62,632 bases of DNA from an uncultured Lentisphaerales bacterium. Its GTDB lineage: Bacteria; Verrucomicrobiota; Kiritimatiellia; RFP12; UBA3636. Below, in pieces: positions 399 to 54,090 of the stretch (the stretch's first letter is position 1; each line of letters begins with the position of its first letter). Below the pieces are notes generated by a model. The model had not been told where the DNA came from, searched no databases, and saw nothing but the letters and a program-made list of their open reading frames with translations. The DNA is taken from positions 1 through 62,632 of the forward strand of contig CAZKJH010000005.1 of NCBI GenBank assembly GCA_964553035.1, given 5' to 3'. The position numbers and the translations under genes are program-made.

Positions 399-3300
399 TT
401 ATTGAATCGCACCTTCCAACACCTCGCGGATTTTACGTAAGAGGTCGGCGGCCGCATAGGGTTTATTCAGCAGGTGCTGGCTCTTTCCCTTCATAAAGTC
501 GTTATGTCCATCATTCTCGCTGTAGCCACTAACAAACAGATGCCGCAGGGCGGGACGTTTATTGAGGATTTCCTCCATCGCTATTCTACCGCCCATGCGA
601 GGCATCACCACATCCGTCATCACGAGGTCGATTTCGTCAGCGTGTTCTTCGAAAACCCGCACGGCCTCTTCCCCGTCTTTCGCGGTTAAAACCTTGTAGC
701 CAGCCCGACGTAGAATCAGAGTCGCTAAGTCTAAAAGCGACTCTTCATCTTCCGCCACAAGAATCGTTTCACTACCGCCTGCGACTGGCATAGCGTTTTG
801 AGAAATCGCGTGGGTACCGCCAGCCGGGATCTGGGTGCTGACGGGCAAATAAATTTTGAACGTCGCCCCTTTGCCCGGCTCGCTATCAACCGTAATATGC
901 CCCTTGTTTTGTTTGACGATGCCATACACGGTGGCAAGACCGAGCCCAGTTCCTTTTCCCTTTTCCTTGGTGGTGAAAAACGGTTCAAAGATCTTTCCAC
1001 TGGTCTCTTTGTCCATCCCCCACCCCGTATCGGTAACACGGAGCAAAATGTAGCGCCCAAAGCGGTTCAATCCGTAAACGTCCCGTTCTTCCGGGGTGAT
1101 TGAAGCTTCCTGCGTTTCAATCGTCAGGGTTCCGCCATCAGGCATGACATCGCGTGCATTGACACAGAGGTTCATCAGCACCTGGCTGATCTGGCCCTTG
1201 TCCGTAAAAACCAGGCCCAACTCTTTTCCAGCAACGAACTTGAACTGGATGTGTTCGCCAATCAATCGCCTGAGCATTTTCTGCGAATGTTCGATCTCAT
1301 CGTTCAGATCGAGGTCGATGGGATCAATCACCTGTTGACGGCTGAAGGCCAGCAACTGCTTGACGATATTTTTGGCGCGCTGTCCCGCTTTAGAGACTTC
1401 CTCAAGACTCGCCACCGCGGCATGGTTCGGTTCCATTTTCGCACAGGCGATCTCGGTATAACCATTGATGACCTGAAGCAGGTTGTTGAAGTCGTGCGCC
1501 ACGCCGCCAACCAACTGGCCGATGGACTGCATTTTTTGCGATTGACGGATCTCCTCTTCCAGCTTGATCACGCCGGTCACATCCCGTTTGACGGCCACAT
1601 AATTGACCCTCTTTCCGGCGGCGTCTTTTACCAGCGAAATCGTTGCATCTTCGGTATAGACCGATCCGTCCTTCTTCTTGTTGACCATTCTTCCGCTCCA
1701 GATGCCTCCCGCCACGAGCGTCGCCCATAGTTCTTTGTAAAATTCGGGATCCTGCTTGCCGCTCTTGAGGATGCGCGGGTTTTGACCAATCACTTCCTCG
1801 CGCGTATATCCGGTGATTTTTTCAAAGGCCGGGTTGACGTGTTCAATTGCCCCCTCGGCATCGGTGATCATGATGATCTCCGCCGCCTGATCGATGGCAG
1901 CCATGAGTCGATCCTTTTCCGCCTCCGCCTGCTTGCGCTCAGTGATGTCGAGATAGATTCCGAGCACACCGCAGATTTCTCCATTGGCATCACGCAAGGG
2001 GATTTTACTGGTAAGTAGGGAAATCGTCTTACCGTCCGGGGTGGTTTGAGGTTCTTCGATCAAAAGCTTCGTGATTCCACTCGTGACGATCTCGCGGTCG
2101 TCGGCTTGATACCGTTCCACCCGATTGCTCCAGGGCATTTGGTAATCATCTTTCCCGATGACATCCTTTGGATCGGCAAATCCGGCATCGTGGGCAAAGA
2201 CAGCATTACAGCCCACGTAAACGAGGTTTTTATCCTTCCAGAAAACTCTCACAGGAATCGTGTTGAAAATGCCTTCAAGAAGCTGCTGCGATTCGCGTAG
2301 CGCCTTTTCGGCCTGCTTGCGTTCGGTGATATCTTGAATGGTGCCGACCAATTTCACCAGCGCATCCGTTGCATCCAATTCCAATCGACCCAATCCATGA
2401 ACCCACCGCTCGGCACGGTCGTTTTGACGGATGATGCGGTATTCCTTGTTGAAACGTTGTCTGTTTCCTATGACTTCGTCGTTAACATAGCCGCTCATCA
2501 TGGCGCGGTCGTCGGGATGAATCAGCCCCAGCCAGCCTTCTAGGCTACGTTCATAGCTTTTGTCGATCCCAAATACCGCATCCAGTGGGATCGAACTTTT
2601 CCAGCGGCCCGAAGGAATATCCAATGCATAACTCCCTAGGCAGGCGATCAATTGCGCCTCCACGAGGGATTTTTCACTCTCCTGCAAGGCAACCCGGCTT
2701 CGCGCGTCATCCTCGATAATGCTGAGCAGGGCTGTTTTCGCCTGATTACTTTCCGCTAACAGCCTGGAGACCTCTCCTTCCGTCTGTTTGCGCTCGCTGA
2801 TCTCCGTGTGGGTTCCGAACATCATCAGCGGCTGGCCGTTGCTGGTGCGGTTCAAGATCCGGCCGCGATCATGAATCCAGACCCAGTGTCCGTCCTTGTG
2901 CTTGATCCGGCATTCACAGTCATAGAAGAGCCGTTCGCCGGAAAAATGTTTTTGCAGCAGCACTTTGGCCCGCTGCAGGTCATCCGGGTGGGTTAAAGTC
3001 TCCCAGGTCTTAATCGTGACGGGAGCCAGTTCATCGAGCGTATAGCCGAGGAACTGCGCCCACCTGTCGTTGAAAACGACTTCGCCGGTCTGGACATTCC
3101 ACTCCCAGGTGCCGGCATTTGTTCCCTGAATAATGCCGGTCAGGCGATTGCGCTCGTCCCGCAGTTCACCTGTCAGTTCCTGCGCCAGCTCCTGCGCTTC
3201 TTCGCGAGTGTATAACGTCCGGATCAAGCCGAACAGCAGGAGTGAAATTAGGGTTCCGCCCGACAAAATGAACCAAACCGGTTTAGAGTGAGCGGTAAAC

Positions 3301-4226: not shown

Positions 4227-6014
4227 GAGTTCTCCTTGCGTTCAGAGCTTTCGAGTGCGCCATAAAGCGGCGGTTCGCCCAGACGGGCGGCGAGCTCATT
4301 GACCTCGGTTTTTAATTCGGCGACCCGCCCTTCGCGTACAACCGTCGCCGTCTGCCAGAGCTGCAGCTCTTCCAGTTTGAATCGCAACGCCTCTTCGTTC
4401 TGTTTGCGCTCGCTGATCTCCGTGTGGGTTCCGAACATCATCAGCGGCTGGCCGTTGCTGGTGCGGTTCAAGATCCGGCCGCGATCATGAATCCAGACCC
4501 AGTGTCCGTCCTTGTGCTTGATCCGGCATTCACAGTCATAGAAGAGCCGTTCGCCGGAAAAATGTTTTTGCAGCAGCACTTTGGCCCGCTGCAGGTCATC
4601 CGGGTGGGTTAAAGTCTCCCAGGTCTTAATCGTGACGGGAGCCAGTTCATCGAGCGTATAGCCGAGGAACTGCGCCCACCTGTCGTTGAAAACGACTTCG
4701 CCGGTCTGGACATTCCACTCCCAGGTGCCGGCATTTGTTCCCTGAATAATGCCGGTCAGGCGATTGCGCTCGTCCCGCAGTTCACCTGTCAGTTCCTGCG
4801 CCAGCTCCTGCGCTTCTTCGCGAGTGTATAACGTCCGGATCAAGCCGAACAGCAGGAGTGAAATTAGGGTTCCGCCCGACAAAATGAACCAAACCGGTTT
4901 AGAGTGAGCGGTAAACCATCCGCCATGGCGTTGAACAAAGTGCAAGGTCCAGCGATGCCCGTTGAAATCAATCGGAACCAGTGCGTCAAGATTCTCTTTC
5001 GAACCGCCGGGGCCGCTCGCGGTGGCAGAAGATTGGCAGAGCTGGTTTTGAGGCAGCGGTTGTGCGCCATCAAAAATCTGAAGGTAAAGCGAATGTTCTT
5101 TCTCCGGATTTTGGGCACCCAATATGCCTTGCAACAGGTCTGTCATTCGATACGGGCTGTAGACCCAGCCATAGAGGGCGGCGCGGCGTTGTTCCACAGT
5201 ATCGGTGGGCATGCCTTTGCGGTAAACCGGAACATACATCAACATACCGGCCTGAATGTCTTCGTCGGTTTCCTGAACCAGCACAACCTTACCGGAGAGG
5301 GTCGCCGCATCCTCGTCCCGCGCCTGTTCCATGGCGGCGCGGCGCACCGGTTCCGAGAACATATCATAGCCGAAGGCCCGCTGGTTGCGCGCATCAAAGG
5401 GTTCCAGATAGATGATGGCGGAATAGATCTCCCGCTCCCCTGCCGGATTGATTGTGTATGCCGGGAACCCTTCGCTACGGACATCCTGGATATGCTGTGC
5501 CAGCTCTTCCGGCTGGATCAGCCGTGAGAACCCAATTCCTTGAATGCCGGGCAGCGTCTGCTCAACTTGCTGGAGTTGGGTGTAGATACGCCATCCTTCG
5601 CGCGTGACGTTGTCGGAGGCATTACAGAACGCCACACCACTGCGTAAAATGCGAGCGTGGTCGTAAAGGCGCTCTGTGATCCTATTTTGAATTTCGTTGC
5701 AGTGGCGATCGAACTCCCGTTTTACATCCCGCTCCACGGTTGCGTGCATATACAGGGTTGCCGCGCCGACAAGTGTCAGCCCGACCACCAGCACAAGCCA
5801 AGACGAGAGGTTGCTCCAATGGGCAGAGTGATTGGTGCTCATGAGTTCTCCTTGCGTTCAGAGCTTTCGAGTGCGCCATAAAGCGGCGGTTCGCCCAGAC
5901 GGGCGGCGAGCTCATTGACCTCGGTTTTTAATTCGGCGACCCGCCCTTCGCGTCCAAGCGTCGCCGTCTGCCAACGTTGCAACTCTTCCATCTTAACTCG
6001 CAACGCCTCTTCGG
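2783..6014. repeat. Tandem direct duplication, 2 x 1616 bp (2783-4398 and 4399-6014)
   Basis: Every six-frame ORF in copy 1 reappears with an identical translation at +1616 (for example 2808->4424, 3248->4864, 3288->4904, 4066->5682). By inspection identity starts at 2783/4399 and ends at 4337/5953. The last 61 bp of each unit differ at 11 positions. Confidence 0.9.
4223..5842 (-). CDS. Truncated CHASE-PAS sensor paralog without output domain (product of the tandem duplication)
   Basis: 539-aa ORF. About the first 480 aa are identical to the N-terminus of the 399..4226 product (TM-CHASE-TM-PAS1). After ...THTEISERKQ it switches to the tail NEEALRFKLEELQLWQTATVVREGRVAELKTEVNELAARLGEPPLYGALESSERKENS, which is shared with the REC/PAS protein. 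ATGA overlaps occur at both ends. Confidence 0.75.
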   Translation of the reverse strand: MSTNHSAHWSNLSSWLVLVVGLTLVGAATLYMHATVERDVKREFDRHCNEIQNRITERLYDHARILRSGVAFCNASDNVTREGWRIYTQLQQVEQTLPGIQGIGFSRLIQPEELAQHIQDVRSEGFPAYTINPAGEREIYSAIIYLEPFDARNQRAFGYDMFSEPVRRAAMEQARDEDAATLSGKVVLVQETDEDIQAGMLMYVPVYRKGMPTDTVEQRRAALYGWVYSPYRMTDLLQGILGAQNPEKEHSLYLQIFDGAQPLPQNQLCQSSATASGPGGSKENLDALVPIDFNGHRWTLHFVQRHGGWFTAHSKPVWFILSGGTLISLLLFGLIRTLYTREEAQELAQELTGELRDERNRLTGIIQGTNAGTWEWNVQTGEVVFNDRWAQFLGYTLDELAPVTIKTWETLTHPDDLQRAKVLLQKHFSGERLFYDCECRIKHKDGHWVWIHDRGRILNRTSNGQPLMMFGTHTEISERKQNEEALRFKLEELQLWQTATVVREGRVAELKTEVNELAARLGEPPLYGALESSERKENS

Positions 6015-18932: not shown

Positions 18933-18974
18933 TCAGATCCATTCTTTGTAAAATTGTAGTCTCACAGGACTAGA

Positions 18975-19013
18975 CACTAGCGACTCGCCACTAGCGACTA
19001 GCCACTAGCGACT
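18975..19013. repeat. Three tandem 14-bp units (CACTAGCGACT + 3 nt) between the MDR and SDR cistrons
   Basis: Read directly. CTAG occurs at 18970, 18977, 18991, 18998 and 19005, a spacing of 7 or 14 bp, so TAG stops fall in all three frames of the coding (minus) strand. Confidence 0.85.
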
Positions 19014-27220: not shown

Positions 27221-27256
27221 AAACTTTGTCGCAAACTTTGTCGCAAACTTTGTCGA
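27221..27256. repeat. Three tandem 12-bp units AAACTTTGTCGC downstream of metH
   Basis: Read directly: 27221-32, 27233-44, and 27245-56 (the last base differs). Confidence 0.85.
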
Positions 27257-37077: not shown

Positions 37078-39849
37078 ATGAACAAGCAGCAACTGGCGTC
37101 GAAAATATGGGAGTCCGCAAACCGAATGCGGTCCAAAATCGAAGCAAACGAATATAAGGACTATATTCTCGGGTTTATCTTTTATAAATACTTGTCGGAT
37201 ACCCAAATCAAGGATGTTCGTGAGAATGGCGGCACAGACGAGGACATCAAGGCTTTATCGGAAAATGACACTGACACGGTCCTAAGCATCCAGAAGAACA
37301 TCGGCTACTTCATCGCCTACGAAAACCTGTTCTCGACGTGGATTGAGAAAGGCAAGGATTTTAACGTATCGAACGTCCGCGAGGCGCTCTCCGCGTTCAG
37401 CCGCCAGATCAACTCCACGCACAAGAAAGTCTTTGATCGCGTTCTGAACACCCTAGAAACAGGGCTGTCGAAACTCGGTGACAGCTCCGGTACGCAGACG
37501 AGGGCGATCAGCGACCTCATCCAACTGATCAAGGTCATTCCGATGGACGGCAGGCAGGACTACGACATTCTGGGCTTCATCTACGAATACCTCATCAGCA
37601 TGTTCGCCGCAAACGCCGGGAAGAAGGCAGGCGAGTTCTACACCCCCCACGAGGTTTCCCTGCTCATGTCCGAAATCGTCGCAGACCATGTAAAGGACAG
37701 GAAGGAAATCAAGATTTACGATCCGACAAGTGGGTCCGGGTCCCTGCTGATCAACATTGGCCGCTCCATTGCGAAGCACATCGACAACGAGGACAACATC
37801 AAGTATTTCGCGCAGGAACTTAAAGAGAACACCTACAATCTCACGCGCATGAACCTTGTTATGCGTGGGATTTTGCCGGACAACATTGTCACGCGAAACG
37901 GTGACACCCTTGAGGATGATTGGCCGTACTTCGAGGAGAGTGACCCCATTGGCACCTACAATCCTCTTCATGTGGATGCGGTGGTATCCAATCCCCCGTA
38001 TTCGCAAGCATGGGATTCGGCAAACAAAGAAACAGATCCGCGCTTTGCCGCGTTTGGACTGGCTCCGAAGACAAAGGCCGACTTCGCTTTCCTGCTCCAT
38101 GATTTTTTCCATTTGAAGCCCGATGGCATCATGACCATTGTGCTGCCGCACGGGGTTTTGTTCCGTGGCGGCGAGGAAGGCGGAATCCGGAAGAATCTCA
38201 TCGAGCAAAACCACATCGACACCATTATCGGCTTGCCCGCCAACATCTTCTTCGGAACCGGCATACCGACCATCATCATGGTGCTGAAAAAGAAGCGGAA
38301 GAACAATGACGTGCTGGTTGTCGACGCATCCAAGGGGTTCTCCAAGGTCGGTAAGAACAACGTCCTCCGCGCTTCCGACATTAGGAAGATTGCCGATGCC
38401 GTCATCTACCGGTCGAACATTGACAAGTTCTCGCGGGTGGTCGGTTTAGACGAAATCCGCCAGAACGAATACAACCTCAACATCCCCCGCTATGTCGATT
38501 CATCCGAGCGCACGGAGACGTGGGACATCTACGCCTCCATGTTTGGTGGCCTGCCTGTGGCCGAAATTGATTTGCTGATGCCGTATTGGGACGCGTTTCC
38601 TGGGTTGAAAAACGCGTTGTTCGTGGATGTGGAGCGCGGCGACTTGTCGCCGCTTTCAAAGCGGGAACAAGTTCCCGCACTCCAGACAATGCCCTACTTC
38701 AAATTAGCCGTGAACGACATCGAAAAAGCAGTCCGCGAACATCCATCGGTGCTTACTTTCAAGCGCGGTTTCGATGCGGCTTTTTCCGGATTTGCGGGTT
38801 TCCTCAATAGCGAGCTTCTCGGCAAGTGGGAAACGCTTAAAATCGGTAAAGAGGAATCGGTTATCGCCGCTTCCATCTTCGAACGACTTGAAGGGATGGC
38901 TCTGGTCGATAAGTACAGCGCCTATCAAGCACTGGATGACGAATGGACAAAGACTGCTATCGATTTGGAAATACTACAAACAGAGGGCTTCGGCGCAGCG
39001 AAGAAGGTCGATCCCCACATGGTGCTGAAAAAGAAGGACGGCAAAGACCATGAGGTTCAGGACGGATGGGTCGGCCATGTCATTCCGTTCGAGTTGGTGC
39101 AGTCCACAATGCTTAAGACCGACGCTGACGCCCTGAAGCAGAAGGTGGAGCGGCTCGCGGAGATTCAATTGGCTTACGAAGAAGTCATTGATTCGCTGTC
39201 GGAAGAAGACAAAGATAGCGAGGTTCTTAACGATGCGAAGGATGCATTCGTCGCCGCCGCCTTGGCGAAGAAAATTAAGGAGCTGTGGGGTACGCTTGCA
39301 AAGGCAACGACCGCCGTTCTCGCTTGCGAAGAGGATTCATTTGAGCGGAAGCTGGTGCAGGTACAGCAGTTGATCGACGAGGAAAAGGAGCTGAAGGTGA
39401 AGGTCCGGAAGGACGCAGCAGCCTTGCACTTGCGGACAAAAGGAACTATCGAGGGATTGTCGGACGAGCAGGTTGTCGAATTGCTTGAAGCGAAGTGGAT
39501 TGAACCGCTGATGACCGCGCTCTACAAAATGCCTGACAACATCATGTCCGACTTGGTTTCGCGTGTTCGTGGCCTAGCAGACAAATACGCCACCACATAC
39601 GCCGAAGTTGCGGAGCAAATCTCCGAAACCAAATCGTCGCTCTCGGCCTTGATTGACGGACTGACAGGCAACGAATATGACCTGAAAGGTTTGAAGGAGT
39701 TTCAGTCGCTTTTGGAGGGGGAGACTCAGGCAGATGGGACGACTAAGCCTACTAAGGCGGCTAGGGAGACTAAGGCTACTGGGACTATGCCTAGCGGCCC
39801 TATTGGCCTTAGTCGCCCTAGCACAAAACCAAAGGAGTCGAAGCCATGA
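37078..39849 (+). CDS. hsdM: Type I restriction-modification system methyltransferase subunit (long form with coiled-coil C-terminal region) ending in a repeat-encoded tail
   Basis: 923-aa ORF. It has the HsdM N-domain (IWESANRMRSKIEANEYKDYILGFIFYKYLSD), the SAM motif YDPTSGSGSL and the catalytic SNPPYS. The last ~40 aa (TKPTKAARETKATGTMPSGPIGLSRPSTKPKESKP) are encoded by junction module A. Confidence 0.9.
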   Translation: MNKQQLASKIWESANRMRSKIEANEYKDYILGFIFYKYLSDTQIKDVRENGGTDEDIKALSENDTDTVLSIQKNIGYFIAYENLFSTWIEKGKDFNVSNVREALSAFSRQINSTHKKVFDRVLNTLETGLSKLGDSSGTQTRAISDLIQLIKVIPMDGRQDYDILGFIYEYLISMFAANAGKKAGEFYTPHEVSLLMSEIVADHVKDRKEIKIYDPTSGSGSLLINIGRSIAKHIDNEDNIKYFAQELKENTYNLTRMNLVMRGILPDNIVTRNGDTLEDDWPYFEESDPIGTYNPLHVDAVVSNPPYSQAWDSANKETDPRFAAFGLAPKTKADFAFLLHDFFHLKPDGIMTIVLPHGVLFRGGEEGGIRKNLIEQNHIDTIIGLPANIFFGTGIPTIIMVLKKKRKNNDVLVVDASKGFSKVGKNNVLRASDIRKIADAVIYRSNIDKFSRVVGLDEIRQNEYNLNIPRYVDSSERTETWDIYASMFGGLPVAEIDLLMPYWDAFPGLKNALFVDVERGDLSPLSKREQVPALQTMPYFKLAVNDIEKAVREHPSVLTFKRGFDAAFSGFAGFLNSELLGKWETLKIGKEESVIAASIFERLEGMALVDKYSAYQALDDEWTKTAIDLEILQTEGFGAAKKVDPHMVLKKKDGKDHEVQDGWVGHVIPFELVQSTMLKTDADALKQKVERLAEIQLAYEEVIDSLSEEDKDSEVLNDAKDAFVAAALAKKIKELWGTLAKATTAVLACEEDSFERKLVQVQQLIDEEKELKVKVRKDAAALHLRTKGTIEGLSDEQVVELLEAKWIEPLMTALYKMPDNIMSDLVSRVRGLADKYATTYAEVAEQISETKSSLSALIDGLTGNEYDLKGLKEFQSLLEGETQADGTTKPTKAARETKATGTMPSGPIGLSRPSTKPKESKP
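39741..39823. repeat. Junction module A: CTAG-rich palindromic 9-mer array at the hsdM 3' end
   Basis: Left arm is GACTAAGCC TACTAAGGC GGCTAGGGA GACTAAGGC. Right arm is ATGCCTAGC GGCCCTATT GGCCTTAGT CGCCCTAGC. It is related to the modules at 40841-41022 and 41620-41870. Confidence 0.8.
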
Positions 39850-41051
39850 GTGAAACAATGAAAACGCCTGAAAAGCAAGGGCTGAAAAGGACAACGAGTA
39901 GACAAAAAATCTCCATTCGGTTTTTCGGCGATGCCGAAGTTCGTGCGGTATGGGATGACGCACATTCCAAGTGGTGTTTTTCGATTCTGGATATTGTTGG
40001 CGTTTTACGTGGCGAACGCGATTATGAAAAAAATCGAAATTACTGGAAATATCTGAAGGCAAAGCTGAAACGGGAAAACAATCAACTGGGTAGTGTGACT
40101 ACCCAGTTCAAGTTCACCGCCCCCGATGGCAAGAAACGCGCCGCGAATGTCCTAGATTACAACGGTATTGTTGAGCTAGCGAAAAATTTTCCAAGCAAAA
40201 TGGCGAACCGTTTTATGGAATGGCTCACCTACAGCGATGAAACCATTGACGGCAAAAGCAAATCCAAGGCGTATGCTCTGTTTGACAGCACTTTGCTGGA
40301 TACCCTGGAAGTCGGTACGGTCAGAGGGTTGCAGCAAATTCATGGCTATCTGTTTGGCGGGCTTTATGATTTCGCGGGGCAAATCCGCTCGAAGAATATT
40401 GCAAAAGGTGGCTTTCAGTTTGCCATGGCGCGCTATCTGCCCCAAACGCTGAAAGACATCGAAGGAATGCCCGAAAACACCTTTGACGAAATTGCGGACA
40501 AGTATGTGGAGATGAATATCGCCCATCCGTTCATGGAAGGCAATGGCAGAAGTACCCGTGTCTGGCTTGACCTGATCTTGAAAAAGCGCCTCAAGCGTTG
40601 TGTGGATTGGAGCAAAATCAACAAGAAGGATTATTTGAATGCCATGGAAAAAAGCGTTTCGAATCCTTCGCAAATCAAGGCATTGCTGCAAAACGCAATC
40701 ACAGACAAAATCAATGACCGCGAAGTGTTTATGAAAGGCGTGGATTACTCCTACTATTATGAACAGGAAGATGGTGTCACCAACGATGTCGAAGTCCGCG
40801 CGGGTTGGGATGATGAACATTCCTCAAAAAATGGTTTTGCTAAGCCGACTAGGCCCACTAAGGCTACTAGGCCTCCTAGGCCCACGAGCAACAGCGCTAG
40901 TTGCCCTAGTGGCCCTCGTAGCCCTAATCCTGAGCCTGCGAGAACTAGGCCTACTAAGGCTACTAAGCCCCCTACGCCCACGAGCAACAGCGCTAGTAGC
41001 CTTAGCCGCCCTAGTGGCCTTACCCCACAACCTGAGGGTCTCCAGCCATGA
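39846..41051 (+). CDS. Bro-N-like DNA-binding domain fused to a Fic (AMPylase-type) domain, with repeat-encoded C-terminal tail
   Basis: 401-aa ORF. The N-terminal segment IRFFGDAEVRAVWDDAHSKWCFSILDIVGVL...YWKYLKAKLKRE...FTAPDGKKRAANV...FMEWL resembles Bro-N/antirepressor N-domains. The Fic motif HPFMEGNGRSTR is intact. SYYYEQ near the end of the globular part resembles the class III inhibitory motif. ATGA overlaps occur on both sides, and AAGGAG lies 8 nt upstream. Confidence 0.8.
   Translation: MSETMKTPEKQGLKRTTSRQKISIRFFGDAEVRAVWDDAHSKWCFSILDIVGVLRGERDYEKNRNYWKYLKAKLKRENNQLGSVTTQFKFTAPDGKKRAANVLDYNGIVELAKNFPSKMANRFMEWLTYSDETIDGKSKSKAYALFDSTLLDTLEVGTVRGLQQIHGYLFGGLYDFAGQIRSKNIAKGGFQFAMARYLPQTLKDIEGMPENTFDEIADKYVEMNIAHPFMEGNGRSTRVWLDLILKKRLKRCVDWSKINKKDYLNAMEKSVSNPSQIKALLQNAITDKINDREVFMKGVDYSYYYEQEDGVTNDVEVRAGWDDEHSSKNGFAKPTRPTKATRPPRPTSNSASCPSGPRSPNPEPARTRPTKATKPPTPTSNSASSLSRPSGLTPQPEGLQP
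40841..40930. repeat. Junction module B1
   Basis: GACTAGGCC CACTAAGGC TACTAGGCC TCCTAGGCC CACGAGCAAC AGCGCTAGT TGCCCTAGT GGCCCTCGT AGCCCTAAT. Confidence 0.8.
40941..41022. repeat. Junction module B2 (second copy, directly upstream of the four-helix-bundle gene)
   Basis: GAACTAGGC CTACTAAGGC TACTAAGCC CCCTACGCC CACGAGCAAC AGCGCTAGT AGCCTTAGC CGCCCTAGT GGCCTTACC. Confidence 0.8.
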
Positions 41052-41617
41052 GCGCAGCTTTTCTTCCACCCAAAGGTAACTTTAGGGATCTGATCGCCTA
41101 TCAGAAGTCGGAGTGCGTCTATGATATCACCTTCCATTTTGCGCACCGCTTCCTTTCTAGGGGCGACCGCACTGTCGATCAGATGGTTCAGGCGGCGCGA
41201 TCTGGCAAGCAGAACATTGCGGAGGGTTGTGCTGCTTCAACGACTTCTTCCGAAACCGAAATTAAGCTCCTGAATGTCGCCAAGGCTAGTTTGCAGGAGC
41301 TTCTGCTGGATTATGAGGACTACCTGCGGGTGAGGAGTCTGCCGATTTGGGAAAAGAATAACCCGAAGGCAGAGCAGTTGCGGAAAGTCTGCGGCAAGCA
41401 TAACGATACGGCGTTTTATACCGCGCAATTGCCGGAGCGGTCGGACGAGGCCATCGCAAATCTAGCGATCACACTTATTCATCAAGCTGATGTCCTGCTG
41501 GCGGCCTACCTTGAACGAATCAAACACGACTTCCTTGAAAATGGCGGCATCCGCGAGCAGATGACCCGAGCCCGCCTCGACTATCGCAGACAGGAAGGAG
41601 GGCTGAATGGCCGATAG
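41048..41617 (+). CDS. Four-helix-bundle protein with suffix domain (family first described from 23S rRNA intervening sequences)
   Basis: 189-aa ORF. The segments FRDLIAYQKSECVYDITFHFAHRF...QMVQAARSGKQNIAEG...AKASLQELLLDYEDYL are typical of this family. The C-terminal ...ENGGIREQMTRARLDYRR is suffix-like. Confidence 0.75.
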   Translation: MSAAFLPPKGNFRDLIAYQKSECVYDITFHFAHRFLSRGDRTVDQMVQAARSGKQNIAEGCAASTTSSETEIKLLNVAKASLQELLLDYEDYLRVRSLPIWEKNNPKAEQLRKVCGKHNDTAFYTAQLPERSDEAIANLAITLIHQADVLLAAYLERIKHDFLENGGIREQMTRARLDYRRQEGGLNGR

Positions 41618-43154
41618 CACCAACAGCAGTGGCCTTAAAACTAAGACTAGGCCCACTAAGGCCAATAAGGCTTCTAGGCCCACTAGCAACAGCCCTAGTA
41701 GCCTTAGTAGCCTTAGCAGCCTTAGTAGCCTTAGTAGCTCTAGCAGCCCTAGCAGCCCTAGCAGCCTTAGTAGCCCTAGTGGCCTTAGTAGCCCTAGCAG
41801 CCCTAGTAGCCTTAGTAGCCTTAGCAGCCTTAGTAGCCTTAGCAGCCCTAGCAGCCCTAGTGGCCCTACCACCAAGCCTAAGTTCCCTAACCACCACACC
41901 CATACCGCCATGCCTGAAAATACGAAAACACCCGAAATCCGCTTTGCCGGATTCACTAACGCTTGGGAACAGCGCAAGCTCGGCGACGTTGCGGACATCA
42001 TTGGCGGCGGCACGCCAAGCACAGGCGTCAAAGAATACTGGGGCGGCGATGTTGATTGGTATGCTCCTGCCGAAATCGGCGAGCAAATCTATCTCACGAG
42101 TAGCCAGAAGAAAATTACAGAGCTGGGATTGCAGAACACCTCGGCAAAGATGCTGCCCGTGGGATCTGTCCTGTTTACTTCCCGCGCAGGCATTGGAAAC
42201 ACAGCTATATTGGCTAAAACTGCTGCAACCAATCAGGGTTTTCAGTCAATCGTACCCCACAAGGATGGATTGGATTCATACTTCATTTTTTCAAGAACGC
42301 ATGAGTTGAAACGCTACGGCGAAACAGTCGGAGCGGGTTCTACGTTCGTGGAAGTGTCTGGGAAACAGATGGCGCTGATGCCGATTCTAATACCTGAAAT
42401 GTCCGAGCAGAAGAATATAGGTCAGCTATTCGCCAATCTCGACCGCCTCATCACCTTGCATCAGCGTGAGTATGACAAGACGGTCAACATCAAGAAGGCC
42501 ATGCTCGAAAAAATGTTTCCGAAAGAGGGCGAGAATAAACCCGAAATCCGCTTCGCCGGATTTACTGACGCTTGGGAACAGAGGAAGCTGGGGGACGTAA
42601 CGAAATCCTATTCAGGTGGAACACCGACTGTCGGCAAAAATGAGTACTACGGTGGGCAGATTCCGTTCATCCGTTCTGCTGAAATCAATAGTTATACTAC
42701 GGAATTATTCCTAACCGAAAGCGGTCTTCAAAACTCATCGGCAAAGATGGTGCACGTCGGCGATATACTCTATGCGCTGTATGGTGCTACGAGTGGAGAG
42801 GTCGGAATAGCCAAATTAAAAGGCGCAATTAATCAGGCCATCTTCGCAATCAAACCCGATGATGGTTATGATTCTCAATTCATCATGCAATGGTTGCGCG
42901 GCCAGAAGCAGAAAATCATCGACAAATACCTGCAAGGCGGGCAAGGGAATCTGTCTGGCTCATTGGTCAAAGACCTACTATTAAAATTTCCGAGCATCGG
43001 CGAGCAAGCAAAAATCGGTTCGTTTTTTGCCTCCCTCGACCACCTCATCACCCTTCATCGGCGGGAGTTGGAAAAGCTCCAAAACATGAAGAAAGCCTTG
43101 CTTGAAAAGATGTTTGTGTCTGCCTCCCGCGTTGTGCGCGGTGCAGGCCAGTAG
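41607..43154 (+). CDS. hsdS: Type I R-M specificity subunit with two target-recognition domains; possible 101-aa repeat-encoded N-terminal extension (alternative start 41910)
   Basis: The canonical HsdS N-terminus (MPENTKTPEIRFAGFTNAWEQRKLGDV) begins at the ATG at 41910, which has no Shine-Dalgarno sequence. The ATG at 41607 has AAGGAGG 5 nt upstream and reads through module C in frame. The conserved repeats PEIRFAGFT(N/D)AWEQRKLGDV and LITLH(Q/R)RE...KKA(M/L)LEKMF each occur twice. Confidence 0.85.
   Translation: MADSTNSSGLKTKTRPTKANKASRPTSNSPSSLSSLSSLSSLSSSSSPSSPSSLSSPSGLSSPSSPSSLSSLSSLSSLSSPSSPSGPTTKPKFPNHHTHTAMPENTKTPEIRFAGFTNAWEQRKLGDVADIIGGGTPSTGVKEYWGGDVDWYAPAEIGEQIYLTSSQKKITELGLQNTSAKMLPVGSVLFTSRAGIGNTAILAKTAATNQGFQSIVPHKDGLDSYFIFSRTHELKRYGETVGAGSTFVEVSGKQMALMPILIPEMSEQKNIGQLFANLDRLITLHQREYDKTVNIKKAMLEKMFPKEGENKPEIRFAGFTDAWEQRKLGDVTKSYSGGTPTVGKNEYYGGQIPFIRSAEINSYTTELFLTESGLQNSSAKMVHVGDILYALYGATSGEVGIAKLKGAINQAIFAIKPDDGYDSQFIMQWLRGQKQKIIDKYLQGGQGNLSGSLVKDLLLKFPSIGEQAKIGSFFASLDHLITLHRRELEKLQNMKKALLEKMFVSASRVVRGAGQ
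41620..41870. repeat. Junction module C: left arm plus expanded right arm, a 9-bp microsatellite of about 20 units (41691-41870, AGCCYTAGY)
   Basis: I counted the units by hand: 19 good units and 1 degenerate unit. The left arm GACTAGGCC CACTAAGGC CAATAAGGC TTCTAGGCC CACTAGCAAC is homologous to B1 and B2. Confidence 0.9.
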
Positions 43155-43166
43155 GAGAACCGCCAA

Positions 43167-43484
43167 ATGAAACACAAGAACAGCGCAACTAAAAGCACAT
43201 CGGATCTTGCCAAAAAAGGCGCACAAGCGGTTACAAGAGGTGTGGTCGCTATCGATGAGAGCTCCTTATTCGAGCGCATTGCTGTCATCATTGAAAGCCG
43301 AAGGGCTCGTGCCGAAAGCCAGGTAAACGCCGAACTCACTTTGATGTATTGGGAAATCGGAAACTATATCAACTCTGTTATTTTAGATGGTGGACGCGGG
43401 GCTTACGGAAAGGAGATTTTGGCGACACTGTCGCCAAAATTGGTGGCATCGCAAAAGGAGAAGAGGACGAGTAATGGCCTTTAA
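43167..43484 (+). pseudogene. N-terminal fragment of a DUF1016/YhcG-family (PD-(D/E)XK nuclease-like) gene
   Basis: 105 codons. The segment ...RARAESQVNAELTLMYWEIGNYINSVILDGGRGAYGKEILATLSPKL matches the conserved N-terminal domain of ~350-aa DUF1016 proteins. The frame then runs into and overlaps the hsdR start. Confidence 0.6.
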
Positions 43485-46400
43485 CAAAGAATCCGAATTT
43501 GAGGAAGCCCTCATCAACATCCTGTTCACCAAAGGGTGGGAGGAAGTTATCAAGAACCCCACGGAGCAGGCGCTGATCAGCAACTGGGCGAGCATCCTCT
43601 TTGACAACAACCGCGACATCGACCGCCTCAATAACTGTCCGCTCACCGATGGAGAAATGCAGCAGATCATCGAGCAGATCAACGTATTGCGAACGCCGCT
43701 CAAGCTCAACGGCCTCATCAACGGAAAGACGGTCTCCATCAAGCGCGACAACCCCACCGACGCGGCTCACTTCGGGAAAGAGGTTTCCCTGAAAATCTAT
43801 GACCGCCAGGAGATCGCCGCCGGGCAGAGCCGGTATCAGATTGTGCAGCAGCCCAAGTTCCCCACGCAGGGCATACTCAATGACCGTCGGGGCGACCTCA
43901 TCCTACTCATCAACGGCATGCCCGTCATTCACATTGAGCTGAAAAAGAGCGGGGTGTCGGTCAGCCAAGCTGCGAATCAGGTTGAGAAGTATTCCAGAGG
44001 GGGGATTTTCAGCGGCATGTTTGCGCTTGTCCAAATTTTCGTGGCCATGGAGCCGAGCGAGACGCTGTACTTCGCCAATCCGGGGACGGACGGCAGGTTT
44101 AATTCCGACTTCTTTTTCCATTGGGCAAACTATGACAACGAGCCTATCAACGACTGGAAGGACATTGCCTCGACGTTGCTCTCGATCCCGATGGCGCACC
44201 AGCTCATTGGCTTCTACACGGTCCCCGATGATACGGACGGTGTTCTCAAAGTCATGCGAAGCTATCAGTATTATGCCGCGAGCGCCATCTCCGATTGCGT
44301 CTCCAAAACCAAGTGGGAGGGCAACAACCAGCTTGGTGGCTACATCTGGCATACGACGGGTTCTGGTAAGACCATGACGAGCTTTAAGTCGGCGCAACTC
44401 ATCGCCAACTCCAAAGACGCGGACAAGGTCATTTTCCTGATGGACCGGATCGAGCTTGGGACGCAATCCCTGAAAGAGTACCGGGGCTTTGCTGAGGATA
44501 ACGACGACGTTCAGGCGACTGAGAACACGCTTGTTCTGATTGCCAAGATGAAAAGCAATAACCCCGCTGACACGCTCATCGTCACGTCTATCCAGAAGAT
44601 GAGCAACATCAAAGAGGAAAGCGGGATGAACGCCGCTGACATCCAGAAGATGACCGACAAACGTATCGTGTTCATCGTGGACGAATGCCATCGTTCCACC
44701 TTTGGCGACATGCTCATCACAGTCAAGGCGACGTTCCCCGGCGCGATATTCTTCGGCTTTACAGGCACCCCGATTCATCTTGAGAACCAGATCAAGGGTA
44801 ACACGACCGCAACGGTTTTTGGTGACGAGTTGCACCGGTACAGCATCGCCGACGGAATCCGGGATAAGAACGTGCTTGGCTTTGATCCTTACAAGGTGCT
44901 GACGCATAAGGACAAAGATGTGCGAAAAGCCGTAGCCTTGCACCAGGCTAAGGCGAAGAACGAACAGGAGGCAATCGCAGACCCAGCAAAAAGTAAGGTC
45001 TATTACCACTTCATCAACGATGTCAAGATGGCCGACAGCAAGGACGCTACGGGCCAGCGCGTACGGGGCATAGAATCCTACCTTCCGAGCACTCAATACA
45101 CCCGCAGTGAACACCAGGAAAAGGTGGTGGACGATATTGTGGCAAACTGGACGACGCTCTCCCATGCAGGGAAATTTCACGCTCTGTTCGCCACGAACAG
45201 TATTCCGGAAGCCATCGAGTATTACCGGCTCATCAAGGCTACGAAGCCGGAGCTTAAAATCACGGCACTCTTTGACCCGAATATCGACAATGGAGCGGGG
45301 GCGACGGCCGCAGTCAAGGAGGCTGGACTTGTCGAAATCATCACAGACTACAATGCCCGCTACGACCAGAAATTCGAGGCCGCCACTCATGCTAAGTTCA
45401 AGAAGGACATTGCGGCGCGACTGGCGCACAAGGAGCCGTACCGATATATCGACCGCACGCCACACCAACAAATTGACCTGTTGATTGTTGTTGACCAGAT
45501 GCTCACTGGCTTTGATTCCAAGTGGATCAACACGCTTTACTTGGATAAGCTACTTGAGTATCAGAACATCATTCAGGCGTTTTCGCGCACGAACCGCCTG
45601 TTCGGGCATGAGAAGCCTTTCGGTACGATCCGCTACTATCGCAAGCCGCACACGATGGAGAAGCACATCGAAGAAGCCGTGAAGCTCTACTCCGGCGACA
45701 AGCCCCTCGGCTTGTTTGTGCAAAGGCTTGAAGACAACCTTGTCGCCATGAACGAGCAGTTTGCCAACATCGGAAAGGTCTTTGCTGCCGCAGGGGTAGC
45801 CGACTTCACGCAAAACCCAGAGGACAAATCAGCTTGCGGCCAATTCGCCAAGCTATTCAGGGAGCTGAACGGGCACCTTGAAGCCGCGAAGATCCAGGGT
45901 TTTACTTGGGATAAGCGGGAGTACGTGTTCCAGAATAGGCCGGGTGCGAAGAAGACCACCGTGAGGATGGCTTTTGATGAAAATGCCTATCTCGTTCTTG
46001 CACTGCGTTACAAAGAGTTGTTCTCCGGTCAGGACGGCGGTGGTACGGGTGGCGGGGGCGAGGTACCATACGAAATCGACGGCCATCTGACCGAGATCGA
46101 CACGGGGAAGATTAACGCGGAATATATGAATTCGCGGTTTGACAGGTATTTAAAGCTCGTGAATCTCAACCCGCAGCCATCAAAGGAACTTGTCGATCAG
46201 GCGTTAGACGATTTGCACAAGACATTCGCGACACTGACCCAGGAAGAACAGAAATACGCTGGACTCTTCCTCCGCGACATCGAACGTGGCGATGGGGTTG
46301 TTGAGGAAGGGAAAACCCTACGCGACTATATCACCGAGTATCAGGTTAGGGCGAAAGACGACCAGATTCACCGCGTGTCAGATACGTTCGGCTTGAATGA

Positions 46401-46707
46401 GGTCCTGTTGCGGGCAATAATGGGATTAAAGCTCACCGAGACAAACATCAATGAATACGGACGTTTTGACCAGTTGAAAGCGACCGTAGACAAAACGAAA
46501 GCCTGCGCATATTTTAAGGCTCAACTGGGCACAACCGTTTCAGCCTTTAAGGCGAGCATGGAGTTAGATAAGCTACTTCGGCGATTCCTACTTGAAGGAG
46601 GCTATGACGTGATACTCTACACAACGGAGTCACAAAGTATTGCATGTGGCTCAGTTGAGCTGCAAGAACTGCGAAAAGTGGCCGAGAAAACAGACGATCC
46701 TTATTGA
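43474..46707 (+). CDS. hsdR: Type I restriction enzyme endonuclease/translocase subunit
   Basis: I moved the start to the ATG at 43474 (MAFNKESEFEEALI), which has GGAG upstream. It has a nuclease region (DLILLINGMPVIHIELK), helicase motif I HTTGSGKT, DEAH-like FIVDECHRS, and motif VI QAFSRTNR. Confidence 0.92.
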   Translation: MAFNKESEFEEALINILFTKGWEEVIKNPTEQALISNWASILFDNNRDIDRLNNCPLTDGEMQQIIEQINVLRTPLKLNGLINGKTVSIKRDNPTDAAHFGKEVSLKIYDRQEIAAGQSRYQIVQQPKFPTQGILNDRRGDLILLINGMPVIHIELKKSGVSVSQAANQVEKYSRGGIFSGMFALVQIFVAMEPSETLYFANPGTDGRFNSDFFFHWANYDNEPINDWKDIASTLLSIPMAHQLIGFYTVPDDTDGVLKVMRSYQYYAASAISDCVSKTKWEGNNQLGGYIWHTTGSGKTMTSFKSAQLIANSKDADKVIFLMDRIELGTQSLKEYRGFAEDNDDVQATENTLVLIAKMKSNNPADTLIVTSIQKMSNIKEESGMNAADIQKMTDKRIVFIVDECHRSTFGDMLITVKATFPGAIFFGFTGTPIHLENQIKGNTTATVFGDELHRYSIADGIRDKNVLGFDPYKVLTHKDKDVRKAVALHQAKAKNEQEAIADPAKSKVYYHFINDVKMADSKDATGQRVRGIESYLPSTQYTRSEHQEKVVDDIVANWTTLSHAGKFHALFATNSIPEAIEYYRLIKATKPELKITALFDPNIDNGAGATAAVKEAGLVEIITDYNARYDQKFEAATHAKFKKDIAARLAHKEPYRYIDRTPHQQIDLLIVVDQMLTGFDSKWINTLYLDKLLEYQNIIQAFSRTNRLFGHEKPFGTIRYYRKPHTMEKHIEEAVKLYSGDKPLGLFVQRLEDNLVAMNEQFANIGKVFAAAGVADFTQNPEDKSACGQFAKLFRELNGHLEAAKIQGFTWDKREYVFQNRPGAKKTTVRMAFDENAYLVLALRYKELFSGQDGGGTGGGGEVPYEIDGHLTEIDTGKINAEYMNSRFDRYLKLVNLNPQPSKELVDQALDDLHKTFATLTQEEQKYAGLFLRDIERGDGVVEEGKTLRDYITEYQVRAKDDQIHRVSDTFGLNEVLLRAIMGLKLTETNINEYGRFDQLKATVDKTKACAYFKAQLGTTVSAFKASMELDKLLRRFLLEGGYDVILYTTESQSIACGSVELQELRKVAEKTDDPY

Positions 46708-53692: not shown

Positions 53693-54090
53693 GTGTCGGC
53701 TCGGTGAAGGACGGATCGCTGGTCGCTCGGGGAAACCCAAAACGGCTGGAGGAAAGTCCGGACTCCATAGGGCAAGGTGTCCTGGTGTAATGCTGGGAAG
53801 GGCGCGAGCAAACCGCGCTGATGGAAAGTGCCGCAGAAAACAAACCGCCGGATTTATCCGGTAAGGGTGAAATGGCGGAGTAAGAGACCACCGTGCGAAG
53901 CAGTAATGTAACGCAGCAAGGTAAACCCCACCTGGAGCAAGATCAAATAGGGAACGTTTTGTACTGCTCGTATAAACCTGATTCCGAAAGGAAAACGGAG
54001 ACGTTCCGGGTTGATTGCATAGATGAATGATCCGAATCCTTCCGAAAGGATGGAATACAGAATCCGGCTTATGAATTCACCGGTCCGACA
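53693..54090 (+). ncRNA. rnpB: RNase P RNA, bacterial type A
   Basis: The universally conserved blocks are present: GGAGGAAAGTCCGGACTCCATAGGGCA, AGCAAACCGCC, GGTAAGGGTGAAA, GTAAGAG, GGTAAACCCCACCTGGAGCAAGATCAAATAGG and ACAGAATCCGGCTTAT. P1 pairs 53695-53708 (GTCGGCTCGGTGAA) with 54076-54089 (TTCACCGGTCCGAC). The ends are approximate (+/-5 nt). Confidence 0.95.

Follow-up and report, generated by a model that had tools for sequence, protein, structure and literature searches.

A repeat-bounded four-helix-bundle gene cassette, probably read through by ribosomes, in the Type I restriction-modification operon of an uncultured Lentisphaerales bacterium

[quoted passage not shown] We consider it rather probable that these modules are the boundary repeats of a cassette carrying a gene for a four-helix-bundle (4HB) protein, inserted in the R-M operon and read through by ribosomes; judged from the contigs compared, the cassette appears to have occupied at least two kinds of site. 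An earlier note, made from the letters of the window, had proposed that the modules mark cassette boundaries which the host open reading frames (ORFs) read through, and the finding of the same module-4HB-module arrangement at another R-M locus and at a site unrelated to R-M bears this out. The argument is built on what the sequences themselves demonstrate, namely the anatomy of module and cassette, an empty site, the non-conservation of the protein tails, three genomic contexts, a copy-number polymorphism and a reading frame kept where it is translated.

The 9-mer AGCCYTAGY occurs 21 times in the window against 0.95 expected copies, a count reached by 0 of 100 shuffles, and all 21 copies fall within 39769-41861, so the modules of the earlier note are real. 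A repeat search placed them in a single family (39742-39832, 40848-40938, 40944-41034 and 41646-41736; identity to the reference copy 64-82%) whose four segments form numerous inverted-repeat pairs, and Tandem Repeats Finder (TRF) reported a 9-bp array of 19.8 copies at 41691-41868. Also the proposed arm structure was recovered, with 4-5 left 9-mers (of the types ACTAGGCCC, ACTAAGGCY, AMTARGSCY and YCTAGGCCC), a 9-mer centre and at least 4 right units which are the reverse complements of the left ones. The centre is ACGAGCAAC in modules B1 and B2 and ACTAGCAAC in module C, the core of a module being given as ACTAGGCCCACTAAGGC, 18 nt, CCCAC[GT]AGCAACAG. Modules A, B1 and B2 are about 90 bp long. 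Module A (39742-39822; 5 left and 4 right 9-mers) has no AC[G/T]AGCAAC centre and is presumably a diverged solo copy of the upstream type, to which B1 (40839-40928, centre at 40884-40892) and B2 (40944-41024, centre at 40980-40988) belong, while module C consists of a left arm (41646-41681), the centre (41682-41690) and about 20 right units (41691-41870). Two Logan contigs of the same strain, both assembled from short reads, stop inside the array of module C; this array thus breaks short-read assemblies, and its length in the window is to be treated with caution. The description of the modules as rich in CTAG is apt in part only, as about half of the units have TTAG, and the whole window contains 76 CTAG where about 93 are expected.

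On each strand of the modules, stops are confined to one frame of three, and all four are read by their host ORF in one and the same stop-free frame, as had been noticed before (0 stops, versus 7-33 in the closed frame). The hsdM gene (37078-39849; Pfam HsdM_N and N6_Mtase) has its canonical end at about 39723 (...EFQSLLEGE) and continues into a read-through tail of 41 aa (39724-39846) that spans module A. The 3' flank of module A (39823-39845), homologous to that of B2, contains a Shine-Dalgarno (SD) sequence (AAAGGAG) and an ATGA stop/start overlap with the following BroN-Fic gene (39846-41051; Pfam Fic and Bro-N, NCBIfam NF046029), which itself ends, behind B1 and B2, where the 3' flank of B2 (41025-41047) provides the ATGA overlap with the start of the 4HB gene (41048-41617, 189 aa), which the cassette carries as its cargo. 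The two AGCCATGAG junctions with ATGA overlap pointed out by the earlier note are indeed present, at 39841-39849 and 41043-41051, and in a by-eye sequence comparison the 3' flanks of the modules resemble the native ribosome-binding and start region of hsdS. Downstream of the 4HB gene, a trailer ORF with module C and its 3' flank (41607-41909) opens at ATG 41607 in frame with hsdS, the canonical part of which (MPENTKTPEIRFAGF..., 41910-43154; Pfam Methylase_S) starts at the ATG used by relatives; a single ORF of 41607-43154 thus includes the canonical hsdS from ATG 41910. Since the strong SD sequence AAGGAGG lies 5 nt upstream of ATG 41607 and none directly upstream of ATG 41910, HsdS is probably made with a module-encoded N-terminal extension. 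Two generalizations had gone too far: the junctions between hsdS, the DUF1016 fragment and hsdR carry no module, so that modules do not mark every cistron junction, and modules are not always translated, module A being untranslated in the related contigs L122 and L146.

Related contigs, all from metagenome assemblies and at least one of them labelled wastewater, allowed the suggested comparison with module-less orthologues, which defined an empty site at the hsdM/hsdS junction. In one simple relative (L129) the two genes overlap by ATGCCTGA (...GGA GAC GAT GCC TGA, with the hsdS ATG inside) and in another (L130) they lie 1 nt apart; because hsdM and hsdS overlap or adjoin in these relatives, the whole window stretch between ...LLEGE and MPENTKTPEIRF is an insertion. 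The unit itself is composed of one or two upstream modules with the centre ACGAGCAAC, followed by an SD sequence and ATGA, then the 4HB gene, a trailer opened by an SD and an ATG in overlap with the 4HB stop, and one or two downstream modules with the centre ACTAGCAAC. Further copies in relatives, on the existence of which the earlier note had staked its reading, were found: the 4HB protein shares its 90%-identity cluster with 18 members encoded on other contigs, and the unit turns up again, 82-88% identical, in another Type I R-M locus and in a non-R-M intergenic site beside lpxC. At the related R-M locus (L132-L136), with an internally deleted hsdM of 76% nucleotide identity, no fic and a cassette of 82% identity, the order is hsdM, module, 4HB gene, module, hsdS. 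There hsdM passes from ...TLLEGE directly into a single upstream-type module and terminates on the ATGA where the 4HB gene begins. The trailer ORF opens at an SD and an ATG in overlap with the 4HB stop and reaches MPENAKTPEIRF of hsdS by way of a downstream-type module. At the other site (L137-L148), the 4HB gene with its module or modules on either side lies between an ABC-permease operon and lpxC-clpX-clpP-tig and is 86-88% identical in nucleotides to 40847-41757 of the window; its upstream modules are read as a short leader ORF, which opens at a remnant of the fic start (MKTNRQKIS...) and stops on ATGA, and its downstream module as a trailer peptide of 51-77 aa.

In both of these contexts a B2-type module with its 3' flank precedes the 4HB gene, and SD, ATG and a downstream-type module follow the gene in every context besides the window as well. 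Among 10 distinct modules compared, left arm and centre are near-invariant and the right arm drifts, and the polarity is fixed, the G-type centre ACGAGCAAC being always upstream and the T-type centre ACTAGCAAC always downstream of the 4HB gene. Every upstream ORF terminates on ATGA at the 4HB start and every trailer opens at the conserved SD and ATG. In the sequences examined, modules are known only from R-M junctions and the lpxC site. The same Fic is present in other R-M loci, and in relatives fic is not bounded by modules, the next element there being a doublet of repetitive extragenic palindromic (REP) sequences, so that the proposal of fic as enclosed within a module-bounded loop or cassette is not supported. 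L122 shares its sample with L137, and L146 shares a different one with L145; these shared samples, and these only, suggest one relative with an R-M locus of the form hsdM, module A, fic, REP doublet and with the 4HB cassette beside lpxC.

The Pro/Thr/Ser/Lys-rich tails encoded by the modules are lacking in orthologues, taken as the best 120 HsdM relatives (65-84% identity) and the best 120 Fic relatives, and the possibility that they are real protein domains conserved as such, raised in the earlier note, found no support. The HsdM relatives end at ...EFQSLLRGE plus 0-5 residues where the HsdM of the window adds 41, and the Fic relatives, of about 296 aa versus 401 aa in the window, begin with M(N)KISIRFF and stop 5-10 aa past ...YYYEQED, without the C-terminal tail of about 100 aa (from about 40770) and without the N-terminal extension of 19 aa (MSETMKTPEKQGLKRTTSRQ; 39846-39905). 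For the Fic tail peptide, a word-index search gave 4 candidates, none significant, and phmmer against 1.84 billion representatives 0 matches. The tails, not conserved, are therefore best described as putative read-through products, not protein domains. How such a tail can arise is illustrated by the closest relative (L122/L146, HsdM 84% identical), in which module A, one unit shorter, lies after the hsdM TGA in a closed frame between hsdM and fic; relative to this arrangement a 1-nt indel and a change of TGA to AGA let hsdM of the window run on to ATGA. The start of the Fic extension, MSETMKTPEK, resembles the hsdS start MPENTKTPEI, and the matching stretch in L146 is a 15-codon mini-ORF which ends on ATGA at the native fic start. 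Between the canonical end of Fic and module B1 sits a 40-nt direct repeat of the fic 5' region (40784-40823, codons for DAEVRAVWDDAHS; 83% identical to 39929-39968), which has the look of something left by partial duplication or by recombination.

From strain to strain, one and the same site holds 1 or 2 upstream and 1 or 2 downstream modules, with further differences in sub-repeats of 9, 27 and 30 nt. The upstream leader at one site measures 135, 228 or 237 nt and the trailer fused to hsdS 273, 303 or 333 nt. All of these lengths are multiples of 3; those of the trailer beside lpxC, which is not fused (155 or 223 nt), are not. This is the pattern that selection for read-through would be expected to leave where translation matters, in a small sample of copies related by descent.

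The cassette reading can then be put as follows. The modules would be copies of one imperfect-palindrome element of about 90 bp and 9-bp period, and the cassette would sit in a native hsdM/hsdS junction that consists of a tight stop/start overlap, with module A left as a diverged solo upstream-type copy between hsdM and a separately acquired fic. Because the units are 9 nt long and stops occur in one frame only, gain or loss of units by slippage cannot break the frame, and hence hsdM and fic may run through the upstream modules and terminate on ATGA, while translation of hsdS would set out from the trailer ATG and cross module C. The chain from hsdM over fic and the 4HB gene to hsdS would in this manner stay translationally coupled despite the insertions, for which read-through may have been selected, and the tails would be by-products. 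For movement or exchange of the cassette we favour recombination or template switching with the modules as sites; the fate of the mRNA may in addition be influenced by the stronger hairpins, those of A and C.

The 4HB protein is assigned by TIGR02436 (34.1 bits, cut-off 24), the '23S rRNA IVS protein' or Avd-like family (IVS, intervening sequence), and by TIGR04258 (78.9 bits, cut-off 40), while PF05635 gives 30.8 bits, below its cut-off of 33.8. A sequence search against the PDB returned no matches, and a single-sequence AlphaFold model is all-helical at low confidence (predicted local distance difference test, pLDDT, 41.5). Proteins of the TIGR02436 type include Avd of diversity-generating retroelements (DGRs) and the ORFs of the IVSs of Leptospira and Coxiella. 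A reverse-transcriptase gene (RVT_1; L132 6617-7621, minus strand) lies about 1.5 kb downstream of hsdS in the cassette-bearing R-M locus of L132, which is notable since 4HB proteins are Avd-like; none was seen among the window ORFs examined, the Pfam scan having covered part of the ORFs. With the IVSs the cassette shares a compact build, a cargo of the 4HB family placed between inverted repeats (PMC4990558; TIGR02436 match), a position where little harm is done and a sporadic distribution that suggests horizontal movement. Unlike them, it has its place in an mRNA operon or, next to lpxC, in an intergenic site, and not in a 23S rRNA helix (9, 25 or 45; a Rfam scan of the window found RNase P as the only RNA and no rRNA), each of its boundaries is a palindrome of 9-bp units in its own right where an IVS has one arm of a terminal stem, its predicted fold contains no enclosing stem, and its harmlessness appears to come from translation through the element with ATGA coupling, not from excision by RNase III, which cuts the 28-bp terminal stem of the Coxiella IVS (PMC4990558). 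A tentative extension, to which we give no great weight, is that module-4HB-module constitutes an unrecognised small selfish cassette related to the ORF-bearing 23S rRNA IVSs. The 4HB protein (Avd or S23p-like), a putative nucleic-acid binder, would travel with the inverted-repeat modules and act on them, and the element would settle either in rRNA helices, from which RNase III removes it, or inside protein-coding operons, where stop-free 9-nt phasing and its own start/stop overlaps would let ribosomes read through. If true, the IVS proteins, long enigmatic, would have a part in keeping or mobilising the element that encodes them.

The hsdM/hsdS junction is, to judge from relatives, a recurrent landing place for repeat-bounded genes, which would be tolerated there because they are translated through. 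L123, L128 and L146 carry at this junction a different palindrome of about 95 nt, the E element (GGAGTGCGGCGATTCATCGCCGCTTTC ... GAAAGCGGGAACAAGTTCCCGCACTCC), which is read through in frame as ...ECGDSSPLSHEATGNGNGKESGNKFPHSKGAETHA until it stops at the native ATGCCTGA overlap. In L123 (4740-5804) three tandem 148-nt units, each a REP doublet with the first 48 nt of hsdS, follow hsdM; then come a gene joined in frame with the repeats before and after it, one more such unit, the fourth, and hsdS proper. The bracketed gene encodes a REP-associated tyrosine transposase (RAYT; NCBIfam NF047646, 80.5 bits). In the window itself, a REP doublet of the E type (GCGGCGACTTGTCGCCGC ... CGGGAACAAGTTCCCG; 38627-38690, about 54 nt, z -4.8) lies in frame within hsdM and is translated as VERGDLSPLSKREQVPALQ, about 18 residues. 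A 27-nt stretch of it matches the RAYT-associated E element of L123 exactly, it is found in the window and the closest relative P0002 only and is absent from other orthologues, and it differs from L122 by one compensatory change in the second stem.

Explanations other than a 4HB cassette have to account for the same modules. They might be RNA elements, either local hairpins or an IVS-like stem enclosing the 4HB gene, cut by RNase III to split or tune the messages, which we hold to be rather unlikely and which is compatible with the cassette reading, not exclusive of it. The self-folding supposed in the earlier note holds for modules A and C, which fold far better than shuffles (z -4.8 and -4.3), as does the 18-bp stem of module A in L122 (z -5.3), but B1 (z -0.8) folds no better than shuffles and B2 is marginal at best (z -1.9). 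Modules A and C may accordingly be processed. Between the window and L122, module A shows one compensatory change of C-G to U-A and one of G-C to G-U, and 4 of 10 module copies share a G-C to G-U change at one pair, yet the 10 modules yield a weak consensus structure only (-14.5 kcal/mol, with a covariation term of about 0 and a single compensatory pair). The cargo, too, is of a family that occurs inside IVS stems, and RNase III cuts the terminal stems of the IVSs of Leptospira and Coxiella (PMC4990558 for Coxiella). The arms of upstream and downstream modules are complementary, with a gain of 2-23 kcal/mol on cofolding, so that the pairing into large loops is thermodynamically possible, but in its fold of minimum energy the cassette as a whole forms local hairpins in place of an enclosing stem, the gain for single modules is small (-2 to -9 kcal/mol before any loop penalty) and the large-loop proposal is thus not preferred. 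Moreover, conservation of left arm and centre along with a drifting right arm is not what a pure pairing constraint predicts, translating ribosomes would melt the stems, and no Rfam family matched the modules or the E element at gathering and E-value thresholds, weak look-alikes of miRNA hairpins excepted. Scans found neither a terminator-like site nor a promoter at any module; intrinsic terminators were considered and rejected, the stems being followed by CACAAAACC or CCACAACC and lacking the combination of a GC-rich stem and a T-run. Less probable still, in our estimate improbable, is a dispersed family of REP/REPIN sequences or of miniature inverted-repeat transposable elements (MITEs), mobilised in trans by a RAYT or other transposase, with the 4HB gene as a bystander. 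To its credit are the gene flanked by its own palindromic repeat at the same junction in L123, the in-frame REP doublet of the window, the existence of solo copies, module A standing alone without a 4HB gene, and the likeness between the module centre CACGAGCAAC (40882-40891, 40978-40987) and the 11-mer CACGAGGCAAC that follows the left arm in the loop of the REP doublets of L123 and L128, a 10/11 match in different frames which could be chance or a shared recognition motif. But the modules, at 81-225 bp with 9-bp internal units (about 90 bp in the typical copy), carry no GTAG or CGTC tag and are no palindromes of 20-40 bp, their cargo is a 4HB protein and not an HUH transposase, the sequences examined hold no evidence of a high copy number, the window has no RAYT (phmmer, L123 RAYT as query) and no other module copy, and every module found outside the window flanks a 4HB gene with fixed polarity of the centre. 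It is the E element of the relatives that does look REP-like, and with it a RAYT is found in L123.

That the tails are instead functional disordered segments, linkers or an HsdS N-terminal domain, under selection as peptides and with the palindromy incidental, would fit the open frame shared by all copies, the translated lengths in multiples of 3 and the strong SD sequence in front of the extended hsdS ORF where the canonical ATG has none, but it is hard to credit given orthologues without the tails, the untranslated module A of the closest relative, the absence of resembling proteins in two very large libraries and the use of the same DNA for stand-alone leader and trailer peptides at the lpxC site; nor would it explain arms that are reverse complements. 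Equally far-fetched appear attC-like recombination sites of an integron-type cassette array. The modules do recall attC as imperfect palindromes of 60-140 bp at the 3' ends of promoterless, co-oriented genes, varying in number between strains, but no integrase or attI lies nearby, the flanks being dnaE, trkH and trkA on one side and genes for an FGGY kinase and AdoHcy hydrolase on the other, the module ends have no RYYYAAC / GTTRRRY core sites, a single gene has modules to either side of it, and in relatives fic lacks such bounds. Two described situations come closer without coinciding. Rickettsia palindromic elements (RPEs) are likewise palindromic repeats of about 100 bp inside ORFs which add peptides that orthologues lack, a feature found here in the HsdM and Fic tails and in the REP doublet of hsdM; RPEs, in contrast, are dispersed in many genes and have no cargo gene, whereas the modules are 9-bp periodic like a variable number of tandem repeats (VNTR), clustered at operon junctions and flank a specific gene. 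Accessory genes are embedded in other Type I R-M operons, such as the rlo genes of Campylobacter and prrC, as Fic, the 4HB gene and the DUF1016 fragment lie between hsd genes here; to our knowledge those descriptions have neither repeated palindromic boundary modules nor read-through coupling.

Several observations weigh against the cassette reading. No AGCCYTAGY unit or module occurs outside 39742-41870 in the window, and no further modules occur in the approximately 8-10 kb around the other cassette copies. Scanning JGI metagenomes with the centre CCCACKAGCAACAGCSCTAGT gave one chance match in a high-GC contig, viral contigs scanned with ACTAGGCCYACTAAGGC gave no matches, and blastn of 39700-41950 against plasmids matched the Fic core only. 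A scan of genome contigs with the 18-mer AGCCYTAGYAGCCYTAGY, too short a query for which a few hundred chance matches were estimated, returned 119 loci spread over several phyla, most of them chance matches or coding repeats; the array loci among them (L067, L083, L087 and L088) were rejected as simple SLS/SPS coding repeats that lack the opposite arm. Very few relocations, perhaps one or two, may underlie the three contexts, as L132-L136 represents a related hsdM locus and only the lpxC site is clearly independent, and the fic 5' fragment in the lpxC copy suggests irregular recombination rather than clean transposition. There is no recombinase or transposase near the cassette. All copies are at least about 82% identical, so that the shared frame and the shared SD and ATG could be due to inheritance rather than selection, and the pairs L122 and L137, and L146 and L145, are assigned to the same organism from shared samples only. 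Literature searches turned up no account of modules of this kind, be it in R-M loci or next to 4HB genes.

Between hsdS and hsdR lies a truncated DUF1016_N fragment (43167-43484, 105 aa), and hsdR (43387-46707; Pfam HSDR_N, ResIII, SWI2_SNF2 and EcoR124_C) likely starts at ATG 43474 (MAFNKESEF), the listed ORF probably beginning 29 codons too early. The neighbours are housekeeping genes, with others besides the named kinase and hydrolase genes downstream, and the 62.6 kb contain no integrase, transposase, RAYT or second 4HB gene. Elsewhere in the window, a CTAG-rich tandem repeat unrelated to the 9-mer modules (18968-19013; GACTAGC and GACTAGCCACTAGC, 3-6 copies) fills the short gap between two minus-strand dehydrogenase genes, and a perfect AAACTTTGTCGC repeat of 2.9 copies (27221-27255) follows the methionine synthase gene. 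The 12-mer repeat CAGCTCCTGCGC occurs in two copies each at 3174-3197 and 4790-4813 in adjacent large minus-strand ORFs, which suggests paralogous genes, and a bacterial RNase P RNA of class A is located at 53703-54085 (197.7 bits).

If the 4HB cassette is what it appears to be, it shows how extra genes can wedge into a tightly coupled restriction operon without silencing the downstream genes, the boundary repeats serving this by stops in one frame, codon phasing and their own SD sequences and ATGA overlaps. The tails and the extended hsdS ORF would at the same time be annotation traps. REP doublets and a RAYT gene translated in frame within the operon, together with the REP doublet in hsdM, would extend the tolerance of in-frame palindromes beyond Rickettsia. 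Finally, the cassette would link the '23S rRNA IVS protein' family to a discrete repeat-bounded unit which is polymorphic between sites and strains, and may so provide a tractable system for the role of the 4HB protein and the movement of IVS-like elements.

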